Made by a program: the position numbers and the translations under genes. Source: Candidatus Moraniibacteriota bacterium (GTDB lineage Bacteria; Patescibacteriota; Minisyncoccia; Moranbacterales; UBA1568). Taken from it: DNA of 64,000 nt. Positions within the stretch are counted from its first letter, which is position 1. Each line of letters starts with the position of its first letter. The stretch is taken from assembly GCA_963743885.1 (NCBI GenBank), contig CAVURJ010000002.1:241706-305705 (forward strand), given 5' to 3'. Positions 2,050 to 56,682 of this stretch are shown piece after piece. The notes below the pieces were generated by a model. The model worked only from the letters and a program-made list of their open reading frames with translations. It searched no databases and was not told the origin of the DNA.

Positions 2050-3444
2050 ATGCAGATCAGGATTTCTAAGGAAACTGTCGCTTATTGGCAGAAGAAGGGC
2101 GCACTCGCGTTCGTTTTTGAGAAGGATGGGAAGGATGGCATGCTCGCGGAGCGCGGTGAGAGAACGACGATGACGATCGCTGTTGATTTGGAAAAAATAA
2201 CGAGGCGCAAGCTCATATTGCTCGCGCGGCGTATCGTACGCGAAGCGATGGCGAAGAAGTACGGAAGCATCGTGATTGATTTCGCGCAGTTCCATTTTCC
2301 GGGGCTCGCGATGGAGGACGAGGATCTGGCTGAACTCATCGCGACTGAGTTCGTCATGGCTGGTTTCGAATTTCGCGATTTCCTCTCGGTACCGAAGGAA
2401 GGGTGGCCGGAAGTAAAGACAATCGTCCTTACTAGTGCCTCTGGCAAAGGTGTTCGCCAGGGCATCGAGCGTGGCATGGTCATTGGCGAAGAGACCAATC
2501 GTGCGCGGCATATCGCGAACATGCCTGGTGGCGAGATGACGCCGGAGATCCTGGCGCAGCATGCGAAGCGGTCAGTGAAGGGCCTGCCAGTGAAATGCAC
2601 GGTGCTCGATGAGACGGCGATGAAGCGTCTCAAGATGGGCGGCGTGCTTGGTGTGGGCAAGGGTTCGGAAGCGAAGTCATGTTTCATCGTGCTTGAGTAT
2701 CGCGGCACATCCGATAAGAAAGCACGACCAGTCGTACTGGTCGGCAAAGGCGTGACGTTCGATACCGGCGGGATCAACCTTAAACCGGAAGGGTCAATTC
2801 TCGGGATGAATATGGATATGTCGGGCGGGGCAGCAGTCATTCATGCAATCGCAGCTGTGGCTCGGCTTGGATTGAAGAAACATATCATCGCGCTCATCCC
2901 GGCAGCGGAGAATATGCCGAGCGGTTCGAGCTATCGCCCAGGTGATGTAATCCGTTCGATGTCCGGCAAGACGATTGAAGTCGCAAATACGGATGCAGAA
3001 GGGCGGATCATCCTCGCTGATGCGCTCCAGTATGCCAAGCGGTATCGTCCGTCGCTCGTCGTTGATGTAGCGACACTCACCGGCGCAGCGCTCGTCGCGC
3101 TTGGCGAGCGAGCAACAGCGCTCTTCACGCAGGATGAGAAGCTTGAGAAATCATTTCGTGAGCTCGGCGAAGAGAGCGGCGACTATGTGTGGCCGCTGCC
3201 GCTCTGGGATGAATATGATGCGGAGATCAAGGGGACAGTCGGTGATGTTGCGAATCTTGGCAAGACGCGCTGGGGCGGTGCGATCACGGCAGCTGCATTC
3301 CTCAAACAGTTCGTCGATCAGGCGTATCCGTGGGTCCATCTCGATATCGCGCCGCGCATGACGGCACTTTCGGACGAGTTCCTCGGCAAGGGTGCAGCTG
3401 GTGCACCGGTGCGTCTTCTCGTGAAGGTATTGGAGAAATTTTAA
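2050..3444 (+). CDS. pepA: Leucyl aminopeptidase, M17 family. An alternative upstream ATG sits at 1957.
   Basis: C-terminal catalytic domain motifs VGKGVTFDTGG, NTDAEGR and DVATLTGA. The N-terminal MQIRISKE... resembles the PepA N-domain. Confidence 0.85.
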   Translation: MQIRISKETVAYWQKKGALAFVFEKDGKDGMLAERGERTTMTIAVDLEKITRRKLILLARRIVREAMAKKYGSIVIDFAQFHFPGLAMEDEDLAELIATEFVMAGFEFRDFLSVPKEGWPEVKTIVLTSASGKGVRQGIERGMVIGEETNRARHIANMPGGEMTPEILAQHAKRSVKGLPVKCTVLDETAMKRLKMGGVLGVGKGSEAKSCFIVLEYRGTSDKKARPVVLVGKGVTFDTGGINLKPEGSILGMNMDMSGGAAVIHAIAAVARLGLKKHIIALIPAAENMPSGSSYRPGDVIRSMSGKTIEVANTDAEGRIILADALQYAKRYRPSLVVDVATLTGAALVALGERATALFTQDEKLEKSFRELGEESGDYVWPLPLWDEYDAEIKGTVGDVANLGKTRWGGAITAAAFLKQFVDQAYPWVHLDIAPRMTALSDEFLGKGAAGAPVRLLVKVLEKF

Positions 3445-3477
3445 TATTTTTGTAAGTTAAAATAACATTTTTTTGGT

Positions 3478-3995
3478 GGAAACATAGAAACCCGCCCAGC
3501 GTAAGCAAGTAATTTTTCCGTTAGGCCGCCGAACTCACGAGCCTTTCTGTAAGCGAAGGATTTCCCTCCCTCTCCACGACCAAAGCCTGCCTGCCAGTAG
3601 GCAGGGAAATCCTCCGATCAGAAAGGCTCGCTCAGACAGCAGCGACTCAAACGGAGAAAATTCTTGCTACGTCGGCGGGTTTCTTCCGTGGTATTTTGCA
3701 GGAGCTTCCTTTTGAAGTCTTTCCTGGGCCGAGTCTGGGCGCGGGAAGGATTTTACCATCAAGGCATTCCTTCTCCGGATTTCTTTTTTCTTCCCCTGGT
3801 TTCCGGCGGTCACATTTCTGATGAGTGAGCCGGTAACGGTCGAGCGTGGCGTTCGGGACTGTTTCAGCCCTCAGAACGAACAGCTCCCCGTTCGGCAGAG
3901 TGAGTCAGGAATGTTCGACGGAAATCATGGAATGAAAAAAGGAAACTGGGGAAGGAATACCATTAAGAGACCAGTACGGTTAGGCGGGTTTTAAA
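3478..3995. repeat. Intergenic composite repeat, family A copy 1 (A-left about 3481-3745 plus A-right about 3748-3992).
   Basis: About 90% identical over about 260 bp to the reverse complement of 10870-11133, and about 85% identical over about 240 bp to the reverse complement of 13115-13384. Contains a long imperfect palindrome centred on the hairpin cctgcctgccagtaggcagg. Confidence 0.6.
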
Positions 3996-4025
3996 CGCAG
4001 TAAAAAGGAAGCGTGAGTTTACATG

Positions 4026-4053
4026 AAAAACAGCTTGAAAAGGCTGTTTTTTT
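4026..4053 (+). terminator. Hairpin plus T-run (aaaaacagc ttgaaaag gctgttttttt), possibly bidirectional.
   Basis: Seen in sequence immediately after repeat A1. Confidence 0.35.
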
Positions 4054-4081
4054 GGTGCTGAAATGGTGCATAAGTAGAGTG

Positions 4082-4150
4082 TTGACGAGTGGTGCCTTGG
4101 TGGCGTAAAATGGGGACATGTTATACGAAAGTGGCAGAAAGTGGGGAAAA
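4082..4150 (+). promoter_or_regulatory. mraZ promoter (TTGACG, 18-bp spacer, TAAAAT) followed by direct GTGGC/GTGGG repeats that could be MraZ boxes.
   Basis: ttgacg...taaaat at 4082-4111. Repeats gtggcg, gtggca and gtgggg lie at about 10-bp spacing. E. coli MraZ is known to bind GTGGG direct repeats in its own promoter. Confidence 0.4.
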
Positions 4151-4263
4151 TAGAAAATACTCACGACGAACGACTTACTACTTACGACAGAGTGTTTTGT
4201 AGTGGGTAGAACATAGATTCTTTCTCGTTATCTGTCGTTAGTCGTCAGTTGTTAGTCAAAGAT

Positions 4264-4698
4264 ATGTTCATCGGCGAATACAACCACACGATTGATCCGA
4301 AGAAGCGCCTCGCGCTGCCTTCGAAGTTCCGCGGGGAGCTGGGGAGCAAGGTGATTGTGACGCGCGGACTCGATAGCTGTCTCTTCGTGTATCCGATCAA
4401 GGTATGGGAGGAGCTCGCGTCGAAGCTCGGGACTTTGCCGGTCGGCGAAGCGGGGACGCGCAGCTTCATCCGTGTCATGCTGGCCGGTGCGGCCGATGTG
4501 GAGCTTGATAGTCAGGGCCGCGTGCTCTTGCCTGAATATCTGAAGCATGATGGTGGACTGAAGAAGGACGTGACGGTCGTCGGTCTCTTCAATCGTCTCG
4601 AGATCTGGGATACCGCAAAGTGGAACCGCTACAAGAGCCAGGCGGAGAAGAATACCGGCAAGATTGCGGAAGAGCTCGGCAAGCTGGGCATATATTAG
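4264..4698 (+). CDS. mraZ: Transcriptional regulator MraZ.
   Basis: Starts MFIGEYNHTIDPKKRLALPSKFR with the duplicated MraZ/SpoVT-AbrB fold and is the first gene of the dcw cluster. ATG verified at 4264. Confidence 0.9.
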   Translation: MFIGEYNHTIDPKKRLALPSKFRGELGSKVIVTRGLDSCLFVYPIKVWEELASKLGTLPVGEAGTRSFIRVMLAGAADVELDSQGRVLLPEYLKHDGGLKKDVTVVGLFNRLEIWDTAKWNRYKSQAEKNTGKIAEELGKLGIY

Positions 4699-6212: not shown

Positions 6213-6234
6213 TAGGAAGATCCGGGTTCTAAGT

Positions 6235-6414
6235 AGCTATCTCAAATCTCATGTCTTGAGAAAACATCTGGATTTCGTGATAGAAACCATGAAAAGTGAG
6301 AAGGGCTATCGTGATATCCCGACGAGCTTTGAGGGGTTTCTAGCCGAAATCCAGATGTTTTATCAGACAAGCCCATGGTTTTTCCCTTATGTAGGCGGTG
6401 GGATTTGAGATAGT
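6235..6414. repeat. Intergenic structured repeat, family B copy 1.
   Basis: Perfect 12-bp terminal inverted repeat ctatctcaaatc/gatttgagatag and an inner 18-bp stem gagaaaacatctggatttcg/cgaaatccagatgttttatc. Shares core blocks (gggctatc, cgacgagctttga, ccgaaatc, gacaagcc) with 22905-23052. Confidence 0.55.
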
Positions 6415-6428
6415 TACTGGAGCGCACT

Positions 6429-9988: not shown

Positions 9989-10090
9989 TCTCAGATTTTT
10001 ATGGCCGGTCCTTGTAAGGGGCCGGCTTTGCTTTTGCTTTAGCAATATTTTAGAATGGGGGAGAGCTGATCAATTCTGATGGAAAATCAT

Positions 10091-10660
10091 ATGAAGATTG
10101 AAAAGACAATATTGGAAGGCGCGGTGATCGTCGAGCCGGACGTATTTTCAGATGACCGTGGATTTTTTATAGAGACATTCCAGGAGGCGCGGTATCAGGA
10201 ATTGCTCGGGGCCGATGCGCATTTCGTCCAGGATAATCTGTCGTGTTCGAAGAAGGGGGTGCTTCGCGGATTGCACTATCAGGCGCCGCCATTCGAGCAG
10301 GGCAAGCTAGTGCAGGTCTTACGTGGCCGCGTGCTCGATGTAGCAGTGGATATTCGCACCGGTTCGTCGACCTATGGCAAGCATGTGACGGTCGAGCTTT
10401 CTGCTGAGAACAAGAAGCAGTTCTTCATTCCGGCTGGATTCGCGCATGGTTTCATGGCGCTTGAGGATGATACGGTCTTCTTGTACAAGTGCACGAATGT
10501 CTATTCCAAGGAGCATGATCGTGGCATGCGCTGGAACGATCCGGCGATTGGCATCACGTGGCCAGCCATCGAGGGTGCTGAGCCAATCGTTTCATCGAAG
10601 GACGCGGAAGCGCCGCTTCTTACGGATGCTGACAAGTGTTTCGTATTCGGCGATTACTAG
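10091..10660 (+). CDS. rfbC: dTDP-4-dehydrorhamnose 3,5-epimerase.
   Basis: Cupin epimerase motifs DDRGFF, RGLHYQ and AHGF. Confidence 0.9.
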   Translation: MKIEKTILEGAVIVEPDVFSDDRGFFIETFQEARYQELLGADAHFVQDNLSCSKKGVLRGLHYQAPPFEQGKLVQVLRGRVLDVAVDIRTGSSTYGKHVTVELSAENKKQFFIPAGFAHGFMALEDDTVFLYKCTNVYSKEHDRGMRWNDPAIGITWPAIEGAEPIVSSKDAEAPLLTDADKCFVFGDY

Positions 10661-10729: not shown

Positions 10730-11133
10730 GTTTGTTTCTTCTCGCCTTCCCACTCGGACCAGCAACCTTCCGGAGAATCATGGTCCCGCCCCGGCGTGGC
10801 GGTCCCATTACCTTCCGTCCTCGCTCTCCGATGCTTCGCATCGGAACCGTGCCCGCTCGGACTCCAGAGTTTCTCCGGAAGATTCTGGCCTCGGGAAAGG
10901 CTTCAAAATGAAGATCCTACAAAATACCAAGGAAGAAACCCGACCCGTGCAAGAATTTTCTCCGTTTGAGCCGACGCTGTCTGAGCGAGCCTTTCTGATC
11001 GGAGGATTTCCCTGCCTACCGGCAGGCAGGCTTTGGTCGTGAAGAGGGAGGGAAATCCTTCGTTCACAGAAAGGCTCGTGAGTTCGGCGGCCTAACGGAA
11101 AAATTGCTTGTTTACGCTGGGCGGGCTTCATCC
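10730..11133. repeat. Family A repeat copy 2, inverted relative to copy 1. The 10870-11133 part matches A-left; 10730-10870 is a divergent module.
   Basis: The reverse complement aligns base for base with 3481-3745 at about 90%, with paired substitutions in stems. Sits between rfbC and rfbB. Confidence 0.6.
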
Positions 11134-11161
11134 TATAATTAATTTATTTGAAATATTGATT

Positions 11162-13029: not shown

Positions 13030-13400
13030 TTTTTTGTTATCTCCTACCCGGAAACTCCCTGTCTGCCGACAGGCAGGTTTTCTCGAGCAAAAGGAAACTC
13101 GAAGGGCTTGTTGTTCTGTATTCCTTCCCCAGTTTCCTTTTTTCATTCCATGGTCCCCAGCGAACATCCCTGACTCGCTCTGTCGAACGGAGGAGCCCCG
13201 CCCGACACGCTTGACGCGAGTCATGCGGGCGGGTGTCCGTTCTGAGGACTGAAGCAGTCCCGAACGCCACGCTCGACCGTTACCGACTCACTCATCGCAT
13301 CCGTGACCGACATCAACCAGAGGAAGAAAAAAGAAATCTGAAGAAGGAATGTCCGATCCGGAAATCGCGTCTCCTGTTAGGCGGGTTTTTTTGTTTTTTA
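13030..13400. repeat. Family A repeat copy 3, inverted. Contains the A-right module plus a variant of the central hairpin of A-left.
   Basis: The reverse complement of 13115-13384 aligns with 3748-3992. It carries an extra 44-nt hairpin insertion (cccgcccg...cgggcggg) and the hairpin cctgtctgccgacaggcagg. Confidence 0.55.
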
Positions 13401-17838: not shown

Positions 17839-18992
17839 GGATAGGCATAGACGCGCGCTTTTATGGCGCAATCGGCAAAGGGCTCGGCCGCTATACTGAG
17901 AAACTGATTGAGTATCTCGAGCGGATTGATACCAGGAATGAGTACGTGGTCTTCCTCCGTAAGGAGAATTTTTCTGCATACGAGCCGAGGAATCCGCGCT
18001 TTCGAAAGGTGCTTGCGGACTATCAGTGGTATAGCTTTTCCGAGCAGCTCTTCTTCCCGTTCTTTCTCCGCCGTTTCAGATTCGATCTCATCCATTTTCC
18101 GCATTTCAACGTCCCGCTTCTGTATCGAGGACGGTTCATCGTCACTATCCATGATCTGATTCTGGTCCGGTATCCGACCGTGCGCAACACGACCAGGTTG
18201 GCGGCGCTCTATTGGGCGAAGTTCGTGGCGTATCGCCTCGTCATCACTTCGGCGATCAGCCGCGCCTTACATATCGTTACGGTCTCGCAGTTTGCGAAGC
18301 ATGATATCGTCGAGCGTTACCCGGTTGCTTCTGGGAAGATATCCGTCACGTATGAGGCGGCCGATCCATTCTGTCGGTTCCTGTCACGCGAAGCGTCGGA
18401 GCAGCTGCTCGGGCGTCTCGGACTCCTCGCTCTGGATGGGGCGCGTGGTATACTGCGATCATACTTCCTGTATGTCGGGAATGCATATCCGCACAAACAT
18501 CTCGGGCTCCTGCTTGATGCCGCAAAGCGTCTGCCGGAAGAGCGGTTCGTCTTGGTTGGCAAGGAAGATTATTTTTATGCTCGGCTGCGTGAAGATGCAG
18601 AGCGGCGCGGTCTCGACAATGTCGTTTTCGCTGGGTTCCTTACGGATCAAGAGCTGTCTGTCCTATACCGCAATGCCGTGGCGTATACCTTCCCATCGCT
18701 CTATGAGGGTTTCGGGCTGCCGCCGCTTGAGGCGATGACTTTCGGATTACCGGTGGTCTCGTCCGATCGCGCGTCGCTTCCCGAGGTACTTGGGTCAGCT
18801 GCTCTGTATTTCGATCCCGAGAAGGATGGAGACTTGGAGCGCGTCCTCCGCGATATCATCAGCGATGAAGCTTTGCGGAAGCGGCTTTCTGAGCTCGGCT
18901 ATGGGCGGGCTGCGGGTTTCCGGTGGGATACTATGGCAGAAGAGACGCTTCGTATATATGAGGAGGAGATGACGAAAGAGAAATACACATAA
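17835..18992 (+). CDS. Glycosyltransferase family 4 (GT-B fold).
   Basis: Starts MRIGIDARFYG. C-terminal EGFGLPPLEAM sugar-donor binding motif. Confidence 0.8.
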   Translation: MRIGIDARFYGAIGKGLGRYTEKLIEYLERIDTRNEYVVFLRKENFSAYEPRNPRFRKVLADYQWYSFSEQLFFPFFLRRFRFDLIHFPHFNVPLLYRGRFIVTIHDLILVRYPTVRNTTRLAALYWAKFVAYRLVITSAISRALHIVTVSQFAKHDIVERYPVASGKISVTYEAADPFCRFLSREASEQLLGRLGLLALDGARGILRSYFLYVGNAYPHKHLGLLLDAAKRLPEERFVLVGKEDYFYARLREDAERRGLDNVVFAGFLTDQELSVLYRNAVAYTFPSLYEGFGLPPLEAMTFGLPVVSSDRASLPEVLGSAALYFDPEKDGDLERVLRDIISDEALRKRLSELGYGRAAGFRWDTMAEETLRIYEEEMTKEKYT

Positions 18993-18993
18993 G

Positions 18994-21219
18994 ATGCTTC
19001 ACGATCCATCGCAATATCATCGGCATATCCGGAGCGTGTCGGATATCCAGCCGTCCGGGCAGTCAAAGCCGGCCCAGTGGCCTCCGCGTCCGCTTCAGGA
19101 AGAGCGGGATGTTTTTGTGTCCGTCGCGGAACAGGAGGACCTGTCGGAGCAGAAGAAGCCAGAGATGTCTTTTCAGGGCCGTGACAGCCGCTGGCACGAG
19201 AGCGTCCTCCATGTGTATCCGAGAGAGGAAGCTGTTTCCGAGGGAAAGATCGTTTCACCGGGGCGTCGAGTAGGAGTGGTGTTCTTCATGATCGTTTGCG
19301 CCTCGCTTCTCGGTGCGGCTGCAGTTTCGAGGGGGCTTGAGATACGGGACAAGGTCGTAGAGCAGGGAGAGCTTGGATTCAGTGGTCTTTTGGCGGCTGC
19401 TGATAGCTTGAAAGGAGAACAGTATGGCGTTTCGGCAGAGCATTTCAACTCGGCATACCGGTCATTCGAGCAGGCGGAGTCTGATTTGACGCTTTTGGGG
19501 CGGACGCTTGCGGATGTTTCCGGGTTCATCCCGTTCCTTTCCCAGGCATCTTCTGGCAAGCATGCTATTGAGGCTGGCAAGCATTTCGCTCTTGCTGGCA
19601 TGCAGCTTTCTCGTGCTGCTACTGATATCTCGCTTTCCAGGCAGTCGCAGGCATCGGGCGGGCAGGTATCGATACTCGGTCTCATGGAGCGGGCCAAGGC
19701 ACCGCTTGATGCTGCGGTCGCAGAGCTCGAAGCTGCCGAACAGGAACTCTCGTCCGTCGATGCGGATGATATTCCTGAGGATAAGCGTGAACGCTTCATC
19801 ATGGTTCGTCGTGATCTGCCGATGCTTATCGGGCTCTTCAAGACCTTTCGGGAGCGAGAGACGCTCGTCGAGGAGCTTCTTGGTGGTAATGGCCCGCGCA
19901 AGTATCTCTTCTTGCTTCAGAATAACCACGAAGCCCGCGCTACGGGAGGTTTCATCGGAACGTATGCCCTTCTCGATGTGAACAATGGTTCGGTGCGGCG
20001 ATTCTTCGTCGATGGCATCTTCAATCCTGACGGACAGCTCCGGGAAAAGATCGTGCCACCGAAGCCTATCCAGAAGATCAGTGCCGCATGGAGCCTGCAT
20101 GATAGCAATTGGTTCCCAGATTTCCCTGAGTCAGCAGAGAAGGCGATCTTCTTCTATGAGAAGACTGGCGGGCCGACCGTGGATGGTGTGGTCGCGCTCA
20201 CGCCGACCGTGATGAAGAAGCTGCTTGCTGTCACCGGTCCGATCGACCTCCCGCAGTATGCACTTACGGTTGATGCGGACAATTTCATGACCGTCATTCA
20301 GGAACAGGTCGAGGTGAAGTATGACAAGGAGGAGAATAAGCCCAAGCAGATCTTGGCCGACCTCTCGACCGAGCTGCTTGAGCGGGTCTTCGCATCGCAA
20401 GACCGGGAGACGATTCTCGGGGTGGGGCAGGCGCTCGTAGAGGGGTTGAATGAGAAACATATCCTTCTCTATACCCGGTATCCGGAGACGGAAGCGCTCA
20501 TCGATGCGGCCGGCTGGTCGGGGCGCGTGCTTGAGACGGATAAGGATTATCTCTCGGTCATCCATACTAATATTAACGGGTATAAGACCGATGGAGTGAT
20601 CGATGAGACGATCCGGCATCGGGCCGAGATACAGGAAGACGGATCAGTCATTGATACAGTGACAGTCACGCGCGAGCACAAGGGTGGCGATACGCCGTAT
20701 GACTGGTGGAACAAGGTCAATGCTGACTATCTCCGCGTCTATGTACCACTCGGTTCCGAGCTTCTTTCGGCCAAGGGGGCGACGTGGGAATTTCCGGAAG
20801 CGCCGCTTGATTATGATGCGCTTGGTTTCAAGAGGGATGCCGATGTCGAGCGCGAAGAGGGACGGACGATCGTTGATGAGCGGACCGGTACTCGGATATC
20901 CGAGGATGCTGGCAAGACGGTTTTTGGTGCGTGGGCGTATGTCAGTCCCAAGGAATCCGTGACGGTGGAATACCGCTACCGGCTGCCGTTCCGTGTTGAT
21001 CTTTCTTCGGCTGCGGGCGCTGATTCGTACGCAGTCACCTATCAGAAACAGTCCGGATCAGAAGGGGGGCGGCTCTTCTCGGCGGTCGCGTTTCCTGTTG
21101 GGGCGGAGCCTGTTTGGCAGACTGGTCCGAATCTGGTACGGTATGGGGGAGAGCTCCGATCTGAGTCCGATCTCCGGATCGACCGGTATGTCGGAGCGGT
21201 TTTTCGCAAAAATCGTTAG
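18994..21219 (+). CDS. DUF4012-like envelope protein, 741 aa. Low-complexity N-terminus, one TM, then a large extracytoplasmic domain.
   Basis: Core LLQNNHEARATGGFIGTYALLDVNNG...DGVVALTPTVMKKLLAVTGPIDL is paralogous to the 29000-30370 ORF. The DUF4012 assignment is from memory of the family. Confidence 0.6.
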   Translation: MLHDPSQYHRHIRSVSDIQPSGQSKPAQWPPRPLQEERDVFVSVAEQEDLSEQKKPEMSFQGRDSRWHESVLHVYPREEAVSEGKIVSPGRRVGVVFFMIVCASLLGAAAVSRGLEIRDKVVEQGELGFSGLLAAADSLKGEQYGVSAEHFNSAYRSFEQAESDLTLLGRTLADVSGFIPFLSQASSGKHAIEAGKHFALAGMQLSRAATDISLSRQSQASGGQVSILGLMERAKAPLDAAVAELEAAEQELSSVDADDIPEDKRERFIMVRRDLPMLIGLFKTFRERETLVEELLGGNGPRKYLFLLQNNHEARATGGFIGTYALLDVNNGSVRRFFVDGIFNPDGQLREKIVPPKPIQKISAAWSLHDSNWFPDFPESAEKAIFFYEKTGGPTVDGVVALTPTVMKKLLAVTGPIDLPQYALTVDADNFMTVIQEQVEVKYDKEENKPKQILADLSTELLERVFASQDRETILGVGQALVEGLNEKHILLYTRYPETEALIDAAGWSGRVLETDKDYLSVIHTNINGYKTDGVIDETIRHRAEIQEDGSVIDTVTVTREHKGGDTPYDWWNKVNADYLRVYVPLGSELLSAKGATWEFPEAPLDYDALGFKRDADVEREEGRTIVDERTGTRISEDAGKTVFGAWAYVSPKESVTVEYRYRLPFRVDLSSAAGADSYAVTYQKQSGSEGGRLFSAVAFPVGAEPVWQTGPNLVRYGGELRSESDLRIDRYVGAVFRKNR

Positions 21220-22890: not shown

Positions 22891-22904
22891 AGAGAATTAT
22901 GTAA

Positions 22905-23052
22905 GTAATTCTCTCAGATCTTATGTCTCAAGAAAATTTTCGGATTTCGAGGGGAAAACCTTTGAAGAAGCGAGGAGGGCTATCAAGATAACCTGACGAG
23001 CTTTGAAAGGTTTTACACCGAAATCTGAATATTTTATGAGACAAGCCGATTC
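22905..23052. repeat. Family B repeat copy 2.
   Basis: Same orientation as B1 and shares the conserved core blocks. Stem positions differ from B1 by paired substitutions, so the structure is conserved. Confidence 0.5.
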
Positions 23053-23143
23053 TTTCTTTTTTGGTGGCGGTGAGATTGAGAGAATTACTAAAAAAACATC
23101 CCCGGGACTATTCAAGTCTCGGGGTTTTTGATAAGGAGGTGAT

Positions 23144-28901: not shown

Positions 28902-28999
28902 TAAATTTTAAATTTCCAATTTTAAATTTTTAAAATTCAGAAATTGGGGATTATTTTAAAATTAAGAATTTAAAATTTAAAATTAGCATCGGAAATCCT
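28902..28999. promoter_or_regulatory. AT-rich array of AATTTTAAAT-type palindromic motifs upstream of the second DUF4012 gene.
   Basis: aaattttaaattt, ccaattttaaattt and aatttaaaatttaaaatt. Strongly palindromic and far below the local GC content. Confidence 0.3.
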
Positions 29000-31297: not shown

Positions 31298-31987
31298 ATG
31301 CGTTTCGACATCATCTCCATCTTTCCAGAGAGCTTCACATCGTATTTTGGCGTGTCGATGCTCAAGCGCGCACAGGAGGATGGGCTGATCGAGATCGCAG
31401 CTCATGATCTACGTGACTATGCGCATGATGCCCGCCGGACGGTCGATGATACGCCGTATGGCGGTGGAGCCGGTATGGTGTTGAAGCCTGAGCCGCTCGC
31501 AGAAGCCCTGGAACAGGTGTTAGGGGATAGTGGACAGGATAGAGGAAGAGAGAAGACGAGAACTATACTTTTTTCGGCGAAGGGCAAGCCGTTCACACAA
31601 GCGGATGCGCGGAGGCTCCGTGAGTATGACCGTCTCATCATGGTCTGTGGACGCTATGAGGGCATCGATGAGCGGATCGCGGAGCATATGATCGATGAAG
31701 AGCTTTCGATCGGCGAGTACGTGCTGACGGGCGGCGAGCTCGCGGCTATGATCGTGACGGATGCGGTGGCGCGGCTCATCCCTGGGGTGCTCGGCAACGC
31801 GGAGAGCGCGGAGACGGAGTCTCATAGCGAAGAGGGCGTGGTGGAGTATCCACAGTACACCAAGCCGGAAGAGTTCCGTGGTTGGAAGGTGCCGGAAGTA
31901 CTCCTGTCTGGGCATCATGCGGAGATTGAGAAGTGGCGGAAGGAGATGTCGGAAAAGAATAGTAGGGAAAGGAATTCCGCCAAGTGA
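31298..31987 (+). CDS. trmD: tRNA (guanine37-N1)-methyltransferase TrmD.
   Basis: MRFDIISIFPE, DTPYGGGAGMVL, CGRYEGIDER and LTGGEL motifs. Confidence 0.9.
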   Translation: MRFDIISIFPESFTSYFGVSMLKRAQEDGLIEIAAHDLRDYAHDARRTVDDTPYGGGAGMVLKPEPLAEALEQVLGDSGQDRGREKTRTILFSAKGKPFTQADARRLREYDRLIMVCGRYEGIDERIAEHMIDEELSIGEYVLTGGELAAMIVTDAVARLIPGVLGNAESAETESHSEEGVVEYPQYTKPEEFRGWKVPEVLLSGHHAEIEKWRKEMSEKNSRERNSAK

Positions 31988-32100
31988 ATTTTCAATGTAC
32001 GAATTTTCAATTTTCAATCAATTACCCAATCTCGCAATTTTCAATGTTTGAAATATTGAATCATTGAAAATTCAATGAAAATTGTGAATTGATAATTGGA
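31988..32100. promoter_or_regulatory. Array of ATTTTCAAT / ATTGAAAAT 9-mers upstream of ftsW (at least five direct and two inverted copies).
   Basis: gaattttcaatg, gaattttcaattttcaatc, gcaattttcaatg, cattgaaaattcaatgaaaattg. Confidence 0.35.
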
Positions 32101-33231
32101 AATTTTTTAGCAGATTTTTTTAAAGTGATTGTGAAAAACCCATTCGATCGCCCATTATTCACCGCTATCCTGATTCTGCTCGGCATCGGTCTCATGATGG
32201 TCGCGTCCGCTGGCGTGGTCTATGGCCAGGTGCGCTTCGGCGACGGGTACTACTTCCTCAAACAGCAGCTGCTCGGCCTTGGTGTGGGACTCGTGTTTCT
32301 CTATGTTCTCCAGCGCATCGATTATCATTTTTGGCAGAAGCTGGTCGTGCCGATTTTCCTTACGGCGCTTGGGCTTCTCGTCCTTGTCTTCGTTCCTGGT
32401 TTCGGCACCACGGTCTATGGCGCGGCGCGCTGGGTGGAGATCGGGCCAGTGTCGTTCCAGCCGTCTGAGGTCATGAAGCTCGCCATCATCCTCTATCTCG
32501 CGGCCTGGTTCGCGAGTAAGGGGCGGGCCAGAGCAGCCGACTTCTTTGAGGGATTCGTGCCGTTCCTCGCGCTCCTCTCCGTCGTCGGTTTCCTCATCAT
32601 CAAGCAGCCAGATACTGGAACGCTCGGCCTCATCTTCCTCATTGCGCTCTCAATATTCTTCGTTTCCGGCGCGAGTATCAGGCATATCGTCTATCTCTTT
32701 CTCGGCGGACTCGCTTTCCTCGGTATCCTTATCAAGGCGGCGCCGTACCGCATGCAGCGCTTTCTCGTCTTCGTCAATCCAGAACATGATCCGCAGGGGT
32801 TCGGCTATCAGATGACTCAGGCACTAGTCGCTATCGGGTCGGGAGGATTCTTCGGTCTCGGCTTGGGACAGAGCCGGCAGAAATTCAACTATCTGCCTGA
32901 GCCGGTCACCGACTCCATCTATGCGGTGCTCGGCGAGGAGCTCGGCTTCATCGGCTGCGCTATCGTGGTCGCGCTCTTCCTCTATATCGCCTGGCGCGGC
33001 CTCCGGATAGCAGCTGGGGCTCCGGATGCCTTCGGGCGATTCGTCGCGGTCGGCATCGTCTCTTGGATTGTCTTCCAGGCGCTCATCAATATGTCGGCGA
33101 TCACCGGTTTGGTGCCGCTCACCGGTATTCCGCTCCCGTTTGTGAGCTATGGTGGAACGTCGCTTGCCGTGCTTCTCTCCGCGGTCGGAATCTTGCTCAA
33201 TATAAGCAAACATTCTACACTGAAGGCGTAG
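32089..33231 (+). CDS. ftsW: Peptidoglycan glycosyltransferase FtsW (SEDS family).
   Basis: Ten-TM SEDS architecture with GxxVxGAxRW and DTGTLG-type motifs. Precedes murG. Start codon is non-ATG (TTG 32089 or a downstream GTG). Confidence 0.85.
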   Translation: MIIGNFLADFFKVIVKNPFDRPLFTAILILLGIGLMMVASAGVVYGQVRFGDGYYFLKQQLLGLGVGLVFLYVLQRIDYHFWQKLVVPIFLTALGLLVLVFVPGFGTTVYGAARWVEIGPVSFQPSEVMKLAIILYLAAWFASKGRARAADFFEGFVPFLALLSVVGFLIIKQPDTGTLGLIFLIALSIFFVSGASIRHIVYLFLGGLAFLGILIKAAPYRMQRFLVFVNPEHDPQGFGYQMTQALVAIGSGGFFGLGLGQSRQKFNYLPEPVTDSIYAVLGEELGFIGCAIVVALFLYIAWRGLRIAAGAPDAFGRFVAVGIVSWIVFQALINMSAITGLVPLTGIPLPFVSYGGTSLAVLLSAVGILLNISKHSTLKA

Positions 33232-33351
33232 ATAAGTCCTTAAAGTTTATAAAGTTTTTCAAGTTCATAAAGCAAGAATCGCTTCGCGATGCTTTCTGAT
33301 GAATTTACGGCTTGATGGACTTTACGGACTTTATAACCTGATAGACTCCCT

Positions 33352-46276: not shown

Positions 46277-47878
46277 TTATATAGCATACGTTTTGTTAGA
46301 TAATATGGGCCTGTAGTAAAGTGGTATTACGCGGCATTCGCATTGCCGAGTCGGGAGTTCGATTCTCCCCAGGTCCACCAAATCGGATTTTTTATCGCCA
46401 AAGGTCTCACTTATCTCAAAGATAAGCCCCAATTTGGCAGTTCCAAATCCTACACCTTTCGTATAGCGTATTCCCTCGGGAAAAACCAGTTTTTGGAACC
46501 GAGGATACAGATGCGGGGGTAAATCCGTCCATTGTCTTCCTAAATCGCTTATGTAGCGTTCTGCATAGGCTACCGAGGCTTCTGCATCGAATTGTTCTAT
46601 CCGAGCCTCACTTCGCGAAATACGCGAAGCTATGAGTTCGTTTTCTACTTCGGCTTTCCGTTCGGTAAATTCTTCCTTTGTATAGGAGCCGTCTTCTCGC
46701 ATCTCGAAAATCCGTTTACGCTTCTCTTCCAAAAGGGCGATTGTCTTATCGTATCGTTTCGCCTCGGCTTCAAAATGTCCGCCTTTGTCTTTCCAGATAC
46801 TCACAATGGTCGAGTTGATGAGGTCGCGAACTTTCTTCTTAGGGATGATTTTTTGGAGCTTCTTTACGAAGTCTTCTGCTACCTTGTCCACGGAAAGACT
46901 TTTGCAATACATAGAGCAACCCTTGGTGAAGCAATGATAGTAGGGGTATGCTCCACCTGTTCCGTGGGAAATACTCGCGGTTACTGCTTTACCGCACTCT
47001 CCGCAGAGGATTGTTTTCCGCAAAGGAAAGGTTGGATTTACCTTGTGGCGGAGGATTTTCACGCCCTTACCCGCCATTCGTTGTTTGATTTGATAGTGTT
47101 CTTCTTCTGTAATCATCGGTTTGTGCAATCCTTTGACTTCTTCTTTCGCCCACGGATTGACGATGATACCTGCATAAAAGTTCAAATGCCTGAAAAGCAA
47201 TCCGCTCACGAATTGCACTCGTGTTTTGCTTCCTCGGTATTTATCAAGCCCCCACTCATTGAACAAACGAGCAAGCTCTGTTTGAGAGACTTGCCCGCGA
47301 GCGTATTCTTTCAATCCGCGTTGAATAATAGGAAAGATGTTTTCGTCTGGCTTGTCGGGTTCGTTTTTCTTTTCGCCTCGTTTCTTGGCTTGTCCGCAAA
47401 TGTAGCCGATAGGAGGCTTCCACGGAAAGATGCCTTGGTTTATTCGTGAAATCATTCCGTCCACGCAACGCTGACGACGAACGGCATTATCAAATTCAGC
47501 ACTGCCCGCCAACACGGTCTCGATGAACTTTTCGGTCGGGTTGTTTCCAATTGGTTCCGTTACGGAATGGAGGGTTACGCCATAATCAAGAAGCACCTTG
47601 CGGACATAGAAATGGTCTTCGGTATTTCTGGCGAACCTGTCTACTTTGGCAACTACAAACGCATCCATTTCCCCTTTATTCTTTCGGCAAAGTTCGATAG
47701 CTCGCAGGAACTCCTTGCGGTCGGCAGATTTTGCCGAAGCTCCCTCCTCACGGAAAACGGCTACGATTTCGATGCCTCGGTCTTTGCAATAGTTTCGGCA
47801 AATCTCTTCTTGAAAATCAAGAGAAGTGCCTTTGATTTGTTCGTCGCTTGATACGCGTGTATAGATTATTCCTTTCAT
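46277..47878 (-). CDS. Large serine recombinase (resolvase/invertase N-domain, recombinase domain and zinc ribbon).
   Basis: Starts MKGIIYTRVSSDEQ with the catalytic Ser, then ...VAKVDRFARN and CGECGK..YYHC zinc ribbon. The open frame runs antisense through the tRNA, so the true C-terminus is probably shorter. Confidence 0.85.
   Translation of the reverse strand: MKGIIYTRVSSDEQIKGTSLDFQEEICRNYCKDRGIEIVAVFREEGASAKSADRKEFLRAIELCRKNKGEMDAFVVAKVDRFARNTEDHFYVRKVLLDYGVTLHSVTEPIGNNPTEKFIETVLAGSAEFDNAVRRQRCVDGMISRINQGIFPWKPPIGYICGQAKKRGEKKNEPDKPDENIFPIIQRGLKEYARGQVSQTELARLFNEWGLDKYRGSKTRVQFVSGLLFRHLNFYAGIIVNPWAKEEVKGLHKPMITEEEHYQIKQRMAGKGVKILRHKVNPTFPLRKTILCGECGKAVTASISHGTGGAYPYYHCFTKGCSMYCKSLSVDKVAEDFVKKLQKIIPKKKVRDLINSTIVSIWKDKGGHFEAEAKRYDKTIALLEEKRKRIFEMREDGSYTKEEFTERKAEVENELIASRISRSEARIEQFDAEASVAYAERYISDLGRQWTDLPPHLYPRFQKLVFPEGIRYTKGVGFGTAKLGLIFEISETFGDKKSDLVDLGRIELPTRQCECRVIPLYYRPILSNKTYAI
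46307..46380 (+). tRNA. tRNA-Ala (anticodon CGC) with genome-encoded CCA.
   Basis: Cloverleaf folded by hand: 7-bp acceptor stem with G3:U70, D stem gtaa/ttac, anticodon stem cggca/tgccg with loop ttCGCat, T arm gggag-TTCGATT-ctccc, discriminator A plus CCA. Confidence 0.85.
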
Positions 47879-48108
47879 AATTTTGTAGTTAGAAAAACCC
47901 AAAAGGCGGTTCTGGCACCCAACTAAACGGCCAAAGCTGTTTTCGTCGGCAGAACCGCCTTTTGGGCGTACGAAAACAAAAAATTTGGCAGTATATTATA
48001 GTTGGGTGCATCTATATTATGCCTCATTTTTCGCTTTCTGCCAACTCCTTTTTGAGGATTTTTGCGAGCTTTTTTATCGCTGTATCGCTCATATCTCCTA
48101 TGACAGGC

Positions 48109-49164
48109 TCAATTTCTGAATTGCCCAAACTTGATACCACGGATGATTTCTGTTTGCCTGTCCGTAGAGATTTTCCCGTAGCCGTAAGAACCAAAGGTTG
48201 TCCCCACGTCTGTATGTCCGAGATTTTGACTGATAGCTTTCTTTTCTTCTTCCGTCAGTCGCGTCTTGATGAACTCTTTGACGATGAGATGCCGAAAGGT
48301 ATGCGGATGAAAATAGGGGATGCCTGCACCCTTGAAACGTTTCTCAAATATCTTTCGGGCGGGCGATGCGTTACTCCAAAAGATAGGCTCGACCACTCCC
48401 GAACTGTAATAGCTGATATTTTCTTTCCCTTGTTCCAATTTGGTGGCAGGAAAAAGCGGGTCGCCTGAAGAAAACTTCCGCTTCTGCTCAAGATAGTCGA
48501 ACCATTCCAGAAAGTAGGAAAGTGGCTTTGGGTCTGGCATTGGGAAGAGGGCGGTTGTAATCATCTTGGAAAACTTGGTTTTCACTCCCGAGGCAGGGTC
48601 TTGCTCCAAGATGAGCCTTCGTTTATCAAAGCTCTTCATTCGTAGGCTGGAAATAGCGGAAATTCTTGCTCCCGTGAGGAGCGTGAGGGCGATGAGAGCT
48701 TTATCGCGTTTTTCCACCTCGGTTTCTCCATTGATACTCTCAAGCACTTTTAGGACTTCCTCGAAAGTCGGAGCATCCACTGTCCTTGCTCGGGTGGCTA
48801 TCTGGCTTTCTTTCCGCGAGAGGTTCAGGAAGCCTATATGGGTAGCGTTGATTTTGGATTTCGGCTGTTGGGCAAGCCACTCGAAGAACTTCCGCAGATA
48901 GCGGAGAATATCGTAGCAATAGCTCAAGCTGATGGAGTTTTTGGAACCCTTCTTTTCCTTTCCCTTGAGCCAGTCTCTGAAAGCGATTGCCTGCTTATCG
49001 TTGAATAGGCTGAAATCTTCCGTCTTGGTAAAGTCTTCCCAGTAGAGCAAGGCTTTCTCGAAAGACCCTATGGAATTAGCTGAAAATTGCTCTGAATTTT
49101 TGAGGAAGGCGAAGAACTCACGCTTCGTCATTTCATTCTTGTAATTGGCTTTTTGCATATACAT
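48109..49164 (-). CDS. Tyrosine-type site-specific recombinase/integrase.
   Basis: C-terminal catalytic box HPHTFRH...LGHTDVGTTFGSYGY (H-x-x-R ... Y) and an N-terminal SAM-like domain. Confidence 0.85.
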   Translation of the reverse strand: MYMQKANYKNEMTKREFFAFLKNSEQFSANSIGSFEKALLYWEDFTKTEDFSLFNDKQAIAFRDWLKGKEKKGSKNSISLSYCYDILRYLRKFFEWLAQQPKSKINATHIGFLNLSRKESQIATRARTVDAPTFEEVLKVLESINGETEVEKRDKALIALTLLTGARISAISSLRMKSFDKRRLILEQDPASGVKTKFSKMITTALFPMPDPKPLSYFLEWFDYLEQKRKFSSGDPLFPATKLEQGKENISYYSSGVVEPIFWSNASPARKIFEKRFKGAGIPYFHPHTFRHLIVKEFIKTRLTEEEKKAISQNLGHTDVGTTFGSYGYGKISTDRQTEIIRGIKFGQFRN

Positions 49165-49242
49165 TTAGGCGTTATTGATGATTTACCCGTAAAGAGACAT
49201 TCAGGAGAGAGTTACTGGAACCTGTTAGTCCTTTTGGAAGTC

Positions 49243-49626
49243 TCATACGAGGCGATTTACTTTTGTCTCGCATCGCTCGCATTTTCCTCGTTGTAAGAAT
49301 TGCTTACGCGAATTTTTACCAATTGTTTTTCCTGTCGGCACGGTCTCTTCCGTTCCTGATTTGGCACGGGTCGGCACTCGGCATTTCAGGCAATAATACT
49401 CGCCTTCTTTGAGTGATACTTTCCGCTTCTTCATTTTTTCAGAAAGGAAGTGGCGGAGTTCGTCGCCCATAATGAGGAGGGGACGAGTGTTTTTTTCAAG
49501 GGGATGGAGACCATCCCCAAGCCATCGGAAAATCGTTTTCTTATTGATGTGAAAGAGCGTGGCAATTTCTTCGGGTGTGTAGCTATGGCGAGACGTGATA
49601 AGTCTCGGATTATATCGTCGTGTCAT
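49243..49626 (-). CDS. Excisionase-like HTH DNA-binding protein with a C-terminal zinc ribbon.
   Basis: YTPEEIATLFHINKKTIFRWL helix-turn-helix and CLKC...CERC. Start reassigned to the internal Met at 49626. Lies immediately upstream of the tyrosine recombinase. Confidence 0.45.
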   Translation of the reverse strand: MTRRYNPRLITSRHSYTPEEIATLFHINKKTIFRWLGDGLHPLEKNTRPLLIMGDELRHFLSEKMKKRKVSLKEGEYYCLKCRVPTRAKSGTEETVPTGKTIGKNSRKQFLQRGKCERCETKVNRLV

Positions 49627-49656
49627 ATGTGAGTAATTATGGATTTCAAGCTGGCT

Positions 49657-49829
49657 ATACTTCTTTGGGCGGAAGTGCTCCACCTTGAGCGGTAGCCTTC
49701 CTTTCGGAAAGCCACTGCTCAAAGATAATTTCTCCAAGGATTTGAACGGCATCTCTGATTTCGGCTACTTCCTCATCGGAAAGCGTATCGTCGTCCAAAA
49801 GCTGTCTTGCTTCTTCGATGGTTAGCATA
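49657..49829 (-). CDS. Small hypothetical protein (57 aa) translationally coupled to the upstream DUF5659 gene by an ATGCTAA overlap.
   Basis: Translated by hand: MLTIEEARQLLDDDTLSDEEVAEIRDAVQILGEIIFEQW... It is not in the supplied ORF track because it falls under 60 aa. Confidence 0.3.
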
Positions 49830-50109
49830 CAGCTTCATCCGAATAGAGGCGGTTCTTTATCATCTTTTGGCTATCAAAAAGCGTCCGTGCATTGAGTTGC
49901 AAACGGTCGTTCCAGTAGTCGTTGGTGCTCGTCTCGATAGTCGGGACGCGTCGAAAGATGAACCGAGCTTTCTTCGGGTTTACGGTTCGCTCAAGGGTAT
50001 GTAGCTCATACCCCAAAGCCACGAGAGAAGAAGCCAAGCCAAGGTCGGTCGTGGCATACTTCGCTTCTTCAGATAGTTCTGCTGTCTCCTTTAGATGTTT
50101 GGTAATCAT
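49822..50109 (-). CDS. DUF5659-like protein.
   Basis: DLGLASSLVALGYELHTLER...ARFIFRR...DYWNDRLQLNARTLFDSQKMIKNRL matches the remembered DUF5659 pattern common on mobile elements. Confidence 0.45.
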   Translation of the reverse strand: MITKHLKETAELSEEAKYATTDLGLASSLVALGYELHTLERTVNPKKARFIFRRVPTIETSTNDYWNDRLQLNARTLFDSQKMIKNRLYSDEAVC

Positions 50110-50285
50110 AAAGATTGATTGTGAATGATGATTACCAATCGCGATTGGATTTTGGAGGTCTCCTACCTCATATGGCGAATTTCACCCTCACCGTGTATGA
50201 AAAAGAAAAAATCCCTTATTAGAGGGACTTTTTTACGCTTCAGTATTGTGTAGACCAACTGGTGAATTTCACCGAGGCAGTTTTC

Positions 50286-51833
50286 CTATAAATTTGGGGC
50301 TACGTCTTCCATATAATCACCAATATCAGAGTAGGGGTCGCTCTGTCCTTTTTTATCATCGACATAGGCTTTGTTTTTCTCCGTCGCCATTTCGCTAAAC
50401 AAGGTAAATCTCGTTCTATAGGAGTTATTTTCCTTGTAGGGATGAAATGGGTCGCTCTCCATACTGAAATAGTTTTTTAGTATATCGGAGACTTGCTGTT
50501 TTTGCTTTTTATACTGCACCTTAGCTGTTTCGTCAGGAATGGATATTTCTCCATTTTGTATCGCTAAAACTTTGAAAAAATCCCATAGGACACTCGGATT
50601 TCCATCGTGCTTCCCAAACCCCATCTCTTCGTATGTTGCAGTATGTTCCTTAGAGGGGAGTTTTATATGTATCTTTTCATCTTTCAAAACCTTCATTGAT
50701 ACCTGCCTCCACTCTGTTCCTGCTGGGATAGTAGAGGGGAACTTATGCTTTGTTTTGCTGGCGTTTCGCTTATCATCAATGCTGATGGCAATCTCTTTTT
50801 CCTGAATACTGTTCTGAAAGGTATGGATATGCTCGTGTTTGATTACCGTTCCTTTCGGTTCTGTAGCATCATCTTTTTTGGTGTCCGTCTTTTTATCAGA
50901 AGAGAATTTTTGGAAAAAATCCTTTTCTTTTTCCAACATAATACTTTTGAGACCTGCTACTTCCTCTTTGATAGTCCCCAACAATAAGGCGACGCTTTTA
51001 TCGAACGGATGGATTTCTGAATTGTTCTCAAACAAATCTTTGTCAGCCACTGTTTCCCTGAAATCAATAAGATATTGTTCTACACCGTCCGACCAAGTTC
51101 CATCAAGAAAATCAGGGGCGGAATAAAGGCTGGTTATTGGCTCGATAAGACCTTGGTAGCATTGGCTTTCTTTCAATCCTTCAAACGACGGTTCACTAAG
51201 AACAACCTCCATCAATTTTCTTCGCAATACCTTGAAAGAAACATTGAGTTCATCAATGCCCGACCTCAAGAAAATAAGTCCGTTGCCATAGTAAGCCCGT
51301 ATAATCGCCTCATAATACGAATACAGTATGCTCAAGAGATAAATCTTCTTATTGAGGGAGAAATCACTAAACTGAAAAGTGTTGAAATCTCTGATTATCT
51401 TTGATTTTTCCAAAACTGTTTTTGCTTCAGCTTGGAAGGAAACAGAGCTGGGAGCCGATACCAACCTCGCGGCAATATCCTTCACTTTTTGTATAAGCAA
51501 CAAATCGGTTGGAGATATTTCTTTGCCATTCAGCATAGAACTTACCTCCATATACTCAATCAAGGCGTATAGAGTTTTTCCGACGGTCAAATCATCTTCA
51601 TCTTCCCAGATAGTCCGCAATCTATTGGCTTTGGATGCCGAAAGGTTTTCTCTATCGTATTTCGGACTATAAATCTCTATACCGAAGTGTTCCTGAAAAA
51701 ACTCTTCTATTGTCCGATTGGAAAAATCCAGAACGTATCCTTGGCTCATTCCAAAAAGCGTTTCGATGATTTTCCTTTCACTCCCATTGAATTTTATACT
51801 CATTCTCATTTGAGAAGCATTTCCTCTGCCCAT
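50286..51833 (-). CDS. Large hypothetical protein (515 aa), possibly defence- or abortive-infection-related.
   Basis: No domain confidently recognised. A weak Rx6H motif (RNASKTKH) is present. Heads an operon that ends in the tyrosine integrase. Confidence 0.45.
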   Translation of the reverse strand: MGRGNASQMRMSIKFNGSERKIIETLFGMSQGYVLDFSNRTIEEFFQEHFGIEIYSPKYDRENLSASKANRLRTIWEDEDDLTVGKTLYALIEYMEVSSMLNGKEISPTDLLLIQKVKDIAARLVSAPSSVSFQAEAKTVLEKSKIIRDFNTFQFSDFSLNKKIYLLSILYSYYEAIIRAYYGNGLIFLRSGIDELNVSFKVLRRKLMEVVLSEPSFEGLKESQCYQGLIEPITSLYSAPDFLDGTWSDGVEQYLIDFRETVADKDLFENNSEIHPFDKSVALLLGTIKEEVAGLKSIMLEKEKDFFQKFSSDKKTDTKKDDATEPKGTVIKHEHIHTFQNSIQEKEIAISIDDKRNASKTKHKFPSTIPAGTEWRQVSMKVLKDEKIHIKLPSKEHTATYEEMGFGKHDGNPSVLWDFFKVLAIQNGEISIPDETAKVQYKKQKQQVSDILKNYFSMESDPFHPYKENNSYRTRFTLFSEMATEKNKAYVDDKKGQSDPYSDIGDYMEDVAPNL

Positions 51834-51917
51834 TGCAGGGAAAATACGACGTTTGGCGTAATTGTAATCGTGTAGTATAGTTATGGTAACTTATATAGGG
51901 CGTGAAATCAAGCTTTT

Positions 51918-52109: not shown

Positions 52110-52133
52110 AGTATCCGTAACAATATAATTACT

Positions 52134-56664: not shown

Positions 56665-56682
56665 TTATGAGGGTGTCGATAT

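Follow-up and report, generated by a model that had tools for sequence, protein, structure and literature searches.

Mosaics of hairpin-forming repeats at intergenic sites of a Candidatus Moranbacteria genome: a candidate family of non-autonomous interspersed elements

What are the ~200-nt hairpin-forming repeat modules, here called AL, X, and AR, that occupy three intergenic gaps in a 64,000-nt stretch of DNA (the window) from Candidatus Moranbacteria, a member of the Patescibacteria/CPR? The placement follows from homologues of PepA and RmlD, and the source contig measures 500 kb. CPR/Patescibacteria genomes are tiny and compact. The original prediction had taken the repeats for either ERIC/MITE-like elements or a family of structured noncoding RNAs. 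The repeats proved to be real, several details of the structure proposed for them did not hold, and the ERIC/MITE-like reading received partial support.

The gaps lie where predicted, at pepA|mraZ (site 1), at rfbC|rfbB (site 2), and downstream of rfbD (site 3), the flanking genes being confirmed as Peptidase_M17 (PepA), MraZ, RfbC, RfbB, and RmlD. Site 1 is bounded by the pepA stop codon (3442-3444) on one side and by a conserved pepA terminator on the other, and the repeats of site 2 lie 3′ of the rfbC terminator, directly before rfbB. The pieces recognized, with the two conserved signals next to site 1, are as follows.

3487-3683, plus strand: AL hairpin copy 1, an imperfect palindrome of ~197 nt with termini GAAACCCGCCC...GGCGGGTTTC (folding, repeats, nhmmer E=2.6e-57).
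3560-3585, plus strand: conserved, unpaired apical segment of AL, ATTTCCCTCCCTCTCCACGACCAAAG (alignment of five AL copies).
3586-3605, no strand assigned: AL tip hairpin CCTGCCTGCCAGTAGGCAGG, inserted in the AL loop in both window copies.
3684-3721, plus strand: linker travelling with AL, homologous to 10902-10931 plus surroundings.
3722-3750, plus strand: mini-X, the outer stem of X with its ~130-nt center deleted, a small predicted hairpin (comparison with 10743-10901).
3763-3961, plus strand: AR hairpin copy 1, an imperfect palindrome of ~199 nt (local arms, folding, nhmmer E=2.6e-70).
3979-3991, plus strand: solo AL-terminus-like motif GTTAGGCGGGTTT, 17 nt past AR copy 1.
4028-4053, plus strand: conserved pepA terminator hairpin (alignment with the empty sites of relatives L013, L008, and L015).
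4082-4111, plus strand: mraZ promoter TTGACG-18-TAAAAT, conserved throughout the relatives and left intact by the insertions.
10743-10901, minus strand: full-length module X, a hairpin of ~160 nt adjoining AL copy 2, 88% identical at the same site of relative L003.
10902-10931, minus strand: linker from X to AL copy 2 (repeat comparison).
10932-11130, minus strand: AL hairpin copy 2, inverted (repeat search, BLAST, nhmmer).
13058-13077, no strand assigned: stand-alone small hairpin CCTGTCTGCCGACAGGCAGG followed by TTTT, terminator-like, after rfbD, related to the AL tip hairpin.
13118-13351, minus strand: AR hairpin copy 2, inverted, 85% identical to copy 1 (repeats, folding, nhmmer E=1.1e-63).
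13195-13233, no strand assigned: nested mini-hairpin CCCCGCCCG...CGGGCGGG at the center of AR copy 2, its termini resembling those of AL.
13376-13388, plus strand: solo GTTAGGCGGGTTT motif, second occurrence, 25 nt from AR copy 2, with a T-run after it.

Both of the inverted recurrences that had been described were recovered. The segment 3481-3745, said to return at 10870-11133, yielded in the repeat search inverted arms at 3487-3667 and 10949-11129 (181 nt, 94% complementary, corresponding to the AL core) and at 3676-3733 and 10885-10942 (84% complementary), with 91% BLAST identity across 245 nt between the two AL regions. For 3748-3992 and its counterpart at 13115-13384, the search gave inverted matches of 85% (3765-3890 and 13226-13351) and 89% (3888-3960 and 13118-13190), AR copy 2 having a 38-column central insertion in the alignment with the four other AR copies. 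As the search turned up no comparable long repeats elsewhere in the 64 kb, chance is excluded as their source.

The anatomy is more composite than had been thought. What had been counted as three copies are two unrelated modules, each present twice, and a third module, X, which had not been told apart from them. The modularity first noted (a left and a right part) is confirmed and extends to more units, AL, linker, X, AR, tip hairpin, and solo termini being separate pieces. Nor are all modules centered on CCTGCCTGCCNGTAGGCAGG: this sequence occurs in the AL copies only (3586-3605 and 11011-11030), AR has a different center, and the third occurrence, at 13058-13077, is the separate terminator-like hairpin upstream of AR. 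The tip hairpin itself is present in 2/2 AL copies of the window and 0/3 of those of L003. The solo GTTAGGCGGGTTT motif at 3979 aligns with the end of a minus-strand AL, GCTGGGCGGGTTT, at the same site in L003; the 13-mer as such is not significantly enriched (3 matches versus 1.07 expected, with 12 of 100 shuffles reaching 3). Centre-deleted forms are represented by mini-X and by the AR of relative L010. Together with the nested mini-hairpin, the tip hairpin, and the solo termini, they testify to modules that have repeatedly been inserted, nested, deleted at the center, and truncated.

The modules measure 160 to 235 nt and the composites about 390 to 500 nt, within the size range of MITEs, with no transposase gene. 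As predicted, their GC content is host-like (52-56% versus 54.6% locally) and they contain no conserved ORF, a 107-aa ORF at 10808-11131 having no counterpart at copy 1. A coding role was rejected on the grounds that the ORFs across AL and AR differ between copies. A DGR template/variable-repeat pair was likewise rejected, there being no reverse transcriptase and the copies being palindromic, with differences that are not adenine-specific.

Other repeats of the window are unrelated to these modules. A second palindromic intergenic family of ~190 nt lies at 6232-6418, between an FtsL-like ORF and ftsI, and at 22897-23096, after a gene ending at 22890. The two are direct copies that share 77% identity along 88 nt, and an inverted copy with 83% identity occurs at another locus of L003 (6908-7049). 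A third hairpin repeat at 61428-61520 has perfect 17-nt arms, CCCCTTTCCAAGGGGAG (61428-61519), and a 50-nt partial copy at 624-673 (84%). Palindromic intergenic stretches at 28902-28984, 31987-32105, and 33244-33339, between cell wall genes, consist of short units such as AATTTTAAATTT or AGTTTATAAAGT; they are AT rich and unlike the GC-normal hairpin repeats in character.

Related contigs were reached through exact-protein look-ups; two large collection scans gave only chance matches. The pattern GAGCCTTTCTG-N55-85-CAGAAAGGCTC had two chance matches in a collection of genome contigs (an Alphaproteobacterium and a Blastocatellia contig), the AL loop ATTTCCCTCYCTCTYCACRAC had four in a collection of metagenome contigs that evidently lacks the L003 contig, and the AR core and AL loop together had one (73% GC) in a collection of viral contigs. 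The relative L003/L019 belongs to a different species and is syntenic with the window (PepA 87% and RmlD 92% identical in amino acids). It carries three AL and two AR copies. At rfbC|rfbB, it has X, linker, and AL(−), with the same junctions and orientation as the window. At pepA|mraZ, it has AR(−) followed by AL(−) where the window has AL(+)...AR(+), that is, the opposite order and orientation, and at uvrA|miaB, beyond the limits of the window, it has a divergent AL (subfamily AL-2) followed by AR(+). A clean in situ inversion between ends AAACCCGCC and GGCGGGTTT was considered as the cause of the flip at pepA|mraZ and rejected because L003 lacks the left-hand AAACCCGCCTAAC that it predicts.

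In the other relatives the same sites are differently occupied or empty. L010 (PepA 75%) has a single, shorter AR(−) at pepA|mraZ; L013 (PepA 83%) has no element there, only 23 nt separating stop codon and terminator as against ~580 nt in the window, and the site is likewise empty in L008 and L015. The rfbC|rfbB gap measures just 9 to 67 bp in L010, L015, L017, and L018. Downstream of rfbD, where the window has AR(−), L018 (RmlD 95%) has AL-2(+), at which its contig ends, and L017 (RmlD 90%) keeps just the first ~50 nt of AL-2. Relatives no more distant than L003 can lack the elements at these sites altogether. Overall, each sampled genome holds 2 to 3 copies per module and orthologous sites are empty in L008, L010, L013, L015, L017, and L018, so that within the sampled loci the modules are dispersed and polymorphic in the manner of MITEs. 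With nhmmer, no copies were found in the window from 14 to 64 kb or in an extra 10 kb of the L003 contig, and AL and AR profiles run against the window and all related loci returned no additional diverged copies.

That the window has only two copies per module, all within 10 kb, might suggest a recent segmental duplication or an assembly artifact. The copies are inverted, strictly intergenic, and 6 to 15% diverged, the genes between them are unique, and the same modules recur in independent assemblies of other samples and species. We therefore give this explanation practically no credence: the copies in L003, L010, L017, and L018 refute it. A duplication with no further copies, the outcome against which the original prediction had been staked, is not what we find, because other genomes carry copies at other sites.

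The more distant relative L008 has a different palindrome of ~115 nt, AGAAAAGATTTCAAAAGTTTTTAG...CTAAAAAACTTTTGAAATCTTTTCT, in its rfbC|rfbB gap (18982-19137), which suggests that this gap attracts hairpin insertions in several lineages.

We consider it somewhat probable that AL, X, and AR are non-autonomous, hairpin-dependent interspersed repeats of the MITE/ERIC/REPIN type that turn over at intergenic hot spots. This reading is favored by the incongruent pattern of presence and absence among the relatives, by the occupation of one site by different family members in different species, by the flipped composite at pepA|mraZ and the extra site in L003, and by the nesting, debris, and one-sided decay of single copies. 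Of the explanations first proposed, the ERIC/MITE-like one is also the best fit to repeats that are short, noncoding, hairpin forming, multicopy, present or absent, inserted in either orientation, and mosaic. Several observations count against it. The copies appear to be few and local. No target site duplications are visible at seven AL junctions or at the ends of the composites, where the empty sites available come from species too diverged for base-exact comparison. Pfam scans identified no transposase among 30 ORFs of the window, nor was a RAYT/Y1 seen in the 64 kb. The only two recombinases there, one a large serine recombinase and the other a tyrosine integrase, belong to an unrelated island flanked by a tRNA gene.

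This low-GC island (40-47%; 46277-60000), beside a tRNA gene at 46307-46377, carries the serine recombinase at 46277-47902 (−), the tyrosine integrase at 48109-49164 (−), a type III restriction-modification pair (methylase, 52134-53852; Res helicase, 53833-56664), a UvrD-like helicase, and a DUF4238 protein, and is probably an integrated mobile or defense island.

The degree of conservation of the modules complicates the picture. At fourfold-degenerate sites, identity is 58% for the window versus L003 (n=1250) and 35 to 59% over all relatives, indicating that synonymous sites are saturated. Between the same two genomes the modules are 85 to 93% identical and the mraZ promoter region is 94.5% identical. 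Across rfbC|rfbB, identity runs from 44-80% in rfbC through 85-98% in the terminator, X, and AL to 77-93% in rfbB. Here the X-linker-AL block agrees between the two species in its junctions and orientation and is about 90% identical, next to an rfbC at 44-80%; orthology with purifying selection explains this more easily than two independent insertions. Among the AL-1 copies, 5 sites and the 21-nt tip indel support clustering by genome, as against 0 to 1 sites for clustering by locus. It is possible, then, either that the copies are much younger than the species, through recent spread with strong site preference or through gene conversion and exchange, or that they are orthologous and under purifying selection.

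The rfbC gene itself (10079-10660 in the window, 17716-18300 in L003) is only 62% identical in amino acids and 44 to 80% in nucleotides (60-nt windows), compared to 87 to 92% amino acid identity of the neighboring genes, which hints at a recombination boundary or gene replacement beside repeat site 2.

The grouping of AL-1 by genome and the abrupt rise in identity at rfbC|rfbB, with its identical junctions, would both be expected if palindromes were spread and homogenized purely by homologous recombination and gene conversion, including the acquisition of DNA of related species through natural transformation, with their symmetry kept up by intramolecular templated repair instead of selection. 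The missing target site duplications and transposase and the clustering of the copies within about 10 to 15 kb in both genomes also agree with such a process. It cannot, however, place a module at a nonhomologous new site, such as uvrA|miaB in L003 or the position downstream of rfbD with its varied occupants, and leaves unexplained the opposite order and orientation at pepA|mraZ as well as the strand-specific G·T bias of AR and the invariant loop of AL described below. As a sufficient explanation we judge it unlikely.

AL and AR form ~200-nt hairpins on either strand (z about −5.2 to −6.9 versus dinucleotide shuffles). Contrary to what had been predicted, the substitutions between the two AL copies of the window are not paired: 9/9 stem differences are one-sided and 8 of these break a pair in one copy, which is a pattern of decay. 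Covariation, the check that the original prediction had called for, emerges in alignments of five copies each. Both sides have changed in 10/64 consensus pairs of AL, a number reached by 0/500 shuffles and by slid controls only to the extent of 1 to 2 pairs, and in 8/74 pairs of AR (0/500 shuffles; slid controls, 0 to 2). Nearly all of this compensatory change comes from one divergent copy per alignment, AL-2 and the L010 AR, respectively. Identity between AL-1 and AL-2 is 71% in paired columns, as against 18/19 positions in the 19-nt apical loop and 9/9 in the internal loop CTCAGACAG. The apical loop hardly varies among the five AL copies, AL-2 included, and within the window its sequence is found only in the two AL copies.

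AR has in addition a preferred strand. Four of its copies fold 14 to 26 kcal/mol better on one strand, whatever their chromosomal orientation; among their polymorphic pair columns, Watson-Crick/G·T combinations outnumber A·C by 13 to 2 (p=0.007), and their fixed pair columns include six G·T and zero A·C. These data imply that, for AR at least, a single-stranded fold-back is important, whether of RNA or of single-stranded DNA. AL displays no such G·T/A·C bias and, if anything, prefers the strand opposite to that of AR, as does X, so that no single transcript orientation can explain the composite.

The conserved AL loop and the G·T bias of AR would also be expected of a functional RNA, and the alternative to be weighed is that AL, AR, or both act in the host as structured RNAs, duplication having brought them to a few operon boundaries and purifying selection having retained them. 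One form would be a long hairpin within a 3′ or 5′ untranslated region (UTR) that sets mRNA stability or processing, e.g., as an RNase III substrate; another would be a small-RNA gene whose C-rich apical loop UUUCCCUCCCUCUCC, with its anti-Shine-Dalgarno-like CCUCC, pairs with ribosome-binding sites. Apart from the fold-back evidence (stems covarying between subfamilies, fixed AL loops, and the folding advantage and G·T bias of AR), the identity between species, close to that of the mraZ promoter region and far above that of fourfold sites, speaks for a host role, as does the position of the pepA composite upstream of the conserved terminator, which places it inside the pepA 3′ UTR, transcribed with pepA.

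Against this, orientation relative to the neighboring genes varies, the composite being flipped in L003 and AR being antisense to both neighbors in L003 and L010, and we saw no promoter or terminator common to the copies in the module flanks. AL and AR prefer opposite strands within one composite, and AL lacks a strand bias. Species as close as L003 do without the elements at these sites, pair-breaking changes accumulate in the window copies, and the truncated and nested pieces resemble debris rather than genes. The proposed Rfam check was also negative: at gathering scores, Rfam 15 matched none of the modules (only the tRNA at 46307 passed in the window), and at permissive thresholds, the best hits in 3400-4300 were chance miRNA precursor matches (19 bits versus the 96 to 97 required). 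The structured RNA half of the original prediction thus retains the covariation, the fixed loop, the bias of AR, and the conservation in its favor and has the lack of an Rfam match and of a conserved orientation against it. A host RNA role would apply especially to AR and to the AL loop; for the modules as such we regard it as possible but doubtful. It is not mutually exclusive with the spread of the modules as mobile repeats.

More speculative still, AL and AR might represent a novel class of fold-back elements in the CPR, strand specific and strongly constrained by purifying selection, namely, regulatory RNAs that consist of long hairpins, have an invariable C-rich loop at the apex, and are distributed to operon boundaries, or substrates of a not-yet-described hairpin-recognizing, site-preferring single-strand insertion system that leaves no target site duplication.

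Hairpins with a strand preference also call to mind integrons, since attC sites have unpaired bulges and strand bias. The present hairpins show both features, and a GTTAGGC core, similar to GTTRRRY, is found at 3979, at 13376, and inside AL, which could point to attC-type single-stranded recombination sites or to targets of the serine/tyrosine recombinase of the island. An attC site is a hairpin of 57 to 141 nt bounded by RYYYAAC...GTTRRRY that lies downstream of cassette ORFs, in the presence of an IntI gene. The present elements are of about 200 nt, their outer ends are AAACCCGCCC/GGGCGGGTTT instead of RYYYAAC/GTTRRRY, their neighbors are housekeeping genes, not cassettes, and there is no IntI-like gene nearby, the only integrase lying 35 kb away in the unrelated island; the solo 13-mer, moreover, lacks significant enrichment. 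The recombination site explanation is highly improbable, and an integron attC identity was rejected because size, end sequences, and gene context do not fit.

The mobile-repeat reading, which we favor, can be compared with several known systems. ERIC sequences, which Wilson and Sharp are said to have found unexpectedly conserved between species, resemble the modules in overall design, the likeness extending to the element-wide palindrome, intergenic location, cotranscription, site polymorphism, both orientations, indels, and cross-species conservation. The account of ERIC in PMC10969869 (citing Wilson & Sharp 2006) describes imperfect palindromes spanning the whole element that are intergenic, cotranscribed, found in either orientation and with internal deletions or insertions, and able to alter mRNA fate; the same account has them present or absent at orthologous sites among related species. 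Our modules differ in their length (about 200 nt for AL and AR versus 127 nt), in sharing no sequence similarity with ERIC, and in belonging to a CPR phylum, and also in that no TA-type duplication was seen, that their copy number is apparently low and clustered, and that several unrelated modules are joined into mosaics.

In REPINs and BIMEs, inverted arms form hairpins whose stems are kept by compensation, there is evidence for the single-stranded fold-back as the functional form, and units are arranged in mosaics of alternating orientation (PMC3116915). AL and AR share the inverted-arm hairpins, the compensated stems (10/64 and 8/74 pairs), the evidence of fold-back, and the mosaics, and in such systems no target site duplication is expected. 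Their stems, of about 90 nt, are much longer than REPs, which measure about 25 nt plus spacer, and they occur in few copies with no RAYT/Y1 transposase seen within 64 kb, unlike REPs, with tens to hundreds of copies and a RAYT gene in the genome.

MITEs are defined as noncoding elements of 50 to 800 bp with terminal inverted repeats, 2- to 10-bp target site duplications, multiple dispersed copies, and an autonomous element acting in trans (PMC11602168). Like Correia, RUP, QMITE, and RPE elements, AL/X/AR are short, noncoding, non-autonomous, and intergenic or in 3′ UTRs, with terminal inverted repeats in AL, and RPE and QMITE illustrate that small-genome symbionts carry such elements too. The inverted ends of AL, GAAACCCGCCC and GGCGGGTTTC, reach the 10 to 15 bp required of terminal inverted repeats, trivially so because the whole module is palindromic. 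The whole of AL and AR is self-complementary, not only the ends; the most conserved part of AL is the apical loop, not the termini; and membership in the MITE class proper is not established, the defining target site duplications not having been found at the AL/AR junctions compared. We know of no insertion sequence related to these modules. RPE elements may, by analogy, be a further model for their mode of action. In the literature consulted, including a large MITE survey (PMC11602168), we found no description of interspersed palindromic repeats in CPR/Patescibacteria. AL/X/AR, in sum, are a new family of a known kind of element.

On the mobile-repeat reading, modules would be copied in either orientation into a few permissive intergenic hot spots (after stop codons, beside terminators, and beside each other), where mosaics would build up. 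Copies would then decay through one-sided substitutions, central deletions, and truncation to solo termini. If propagation or recognition acts on the folded-back form of one strand, this would explain the compensation in the stems, the near invariance of the AL loop, and the tolerance of AR for G·T but not A·C on one strand. Copying would presumably need an enzyme supplied in trans, and the strand bias would be more in keeping with a single-strand-specific recombinase, HUH/RAYT-like or other, than with a DDE transposase. The high identity across species may reflect recent spread and/or gene conversion and not host function.

The insertions may have consequences for their neighbors. Outward promoter elements and RNase III processing have been documented for Correia elements (PMC10969869, PMC11602168), whose transcripts contain long double-stranded RNA stems that RNase III cuts (PMC10969869). 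By this precedent, cotranscribed copies, in the pepA 3′ UTR and upstream of rfbB, would form long double-stranded stems of the kind that RNase III cuts, an enzyme encoded in these genomes (L017). Just 23 nt upstream of the rfbB start there is a promoter-like sequence, TTTACG-17-TATAAT (11111-11139; 10/12 match), whose −35-like hexamer is supplied by the outer terminus of AL copy 2, so that the AL end may contribute a −35 box to rfbB.

A further hairpin of ~95 nt lies between the mraZ promoter and the mraZ start (4150-4260; arms 4165-4191/4231-4257) and is absent from L013 and L003, which have much shorter 5′ regions.

The anatomy of these repeats is ordinary for palindromic elements; it is the combination of extreme cross-species conservation, invariant loop, strand bias, and turnover at hot spots that is noteworthy. 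A hairpin family turning over at a few intergenic hot spots could furnish markers for strain typing, and the elements may explain some assembly breaks, since short-read contigs of the source sample terminate at them. They may also offer a handle on the expression of the dcw and rhamnose operons, through double-stranded stems in 3′ UTRs and a donated −35 box. With their conservation, invariant loop, and G·T bias, they provide a test case for whether ERIC-like elements are kept by their own propagation or by an RNA function for the host.
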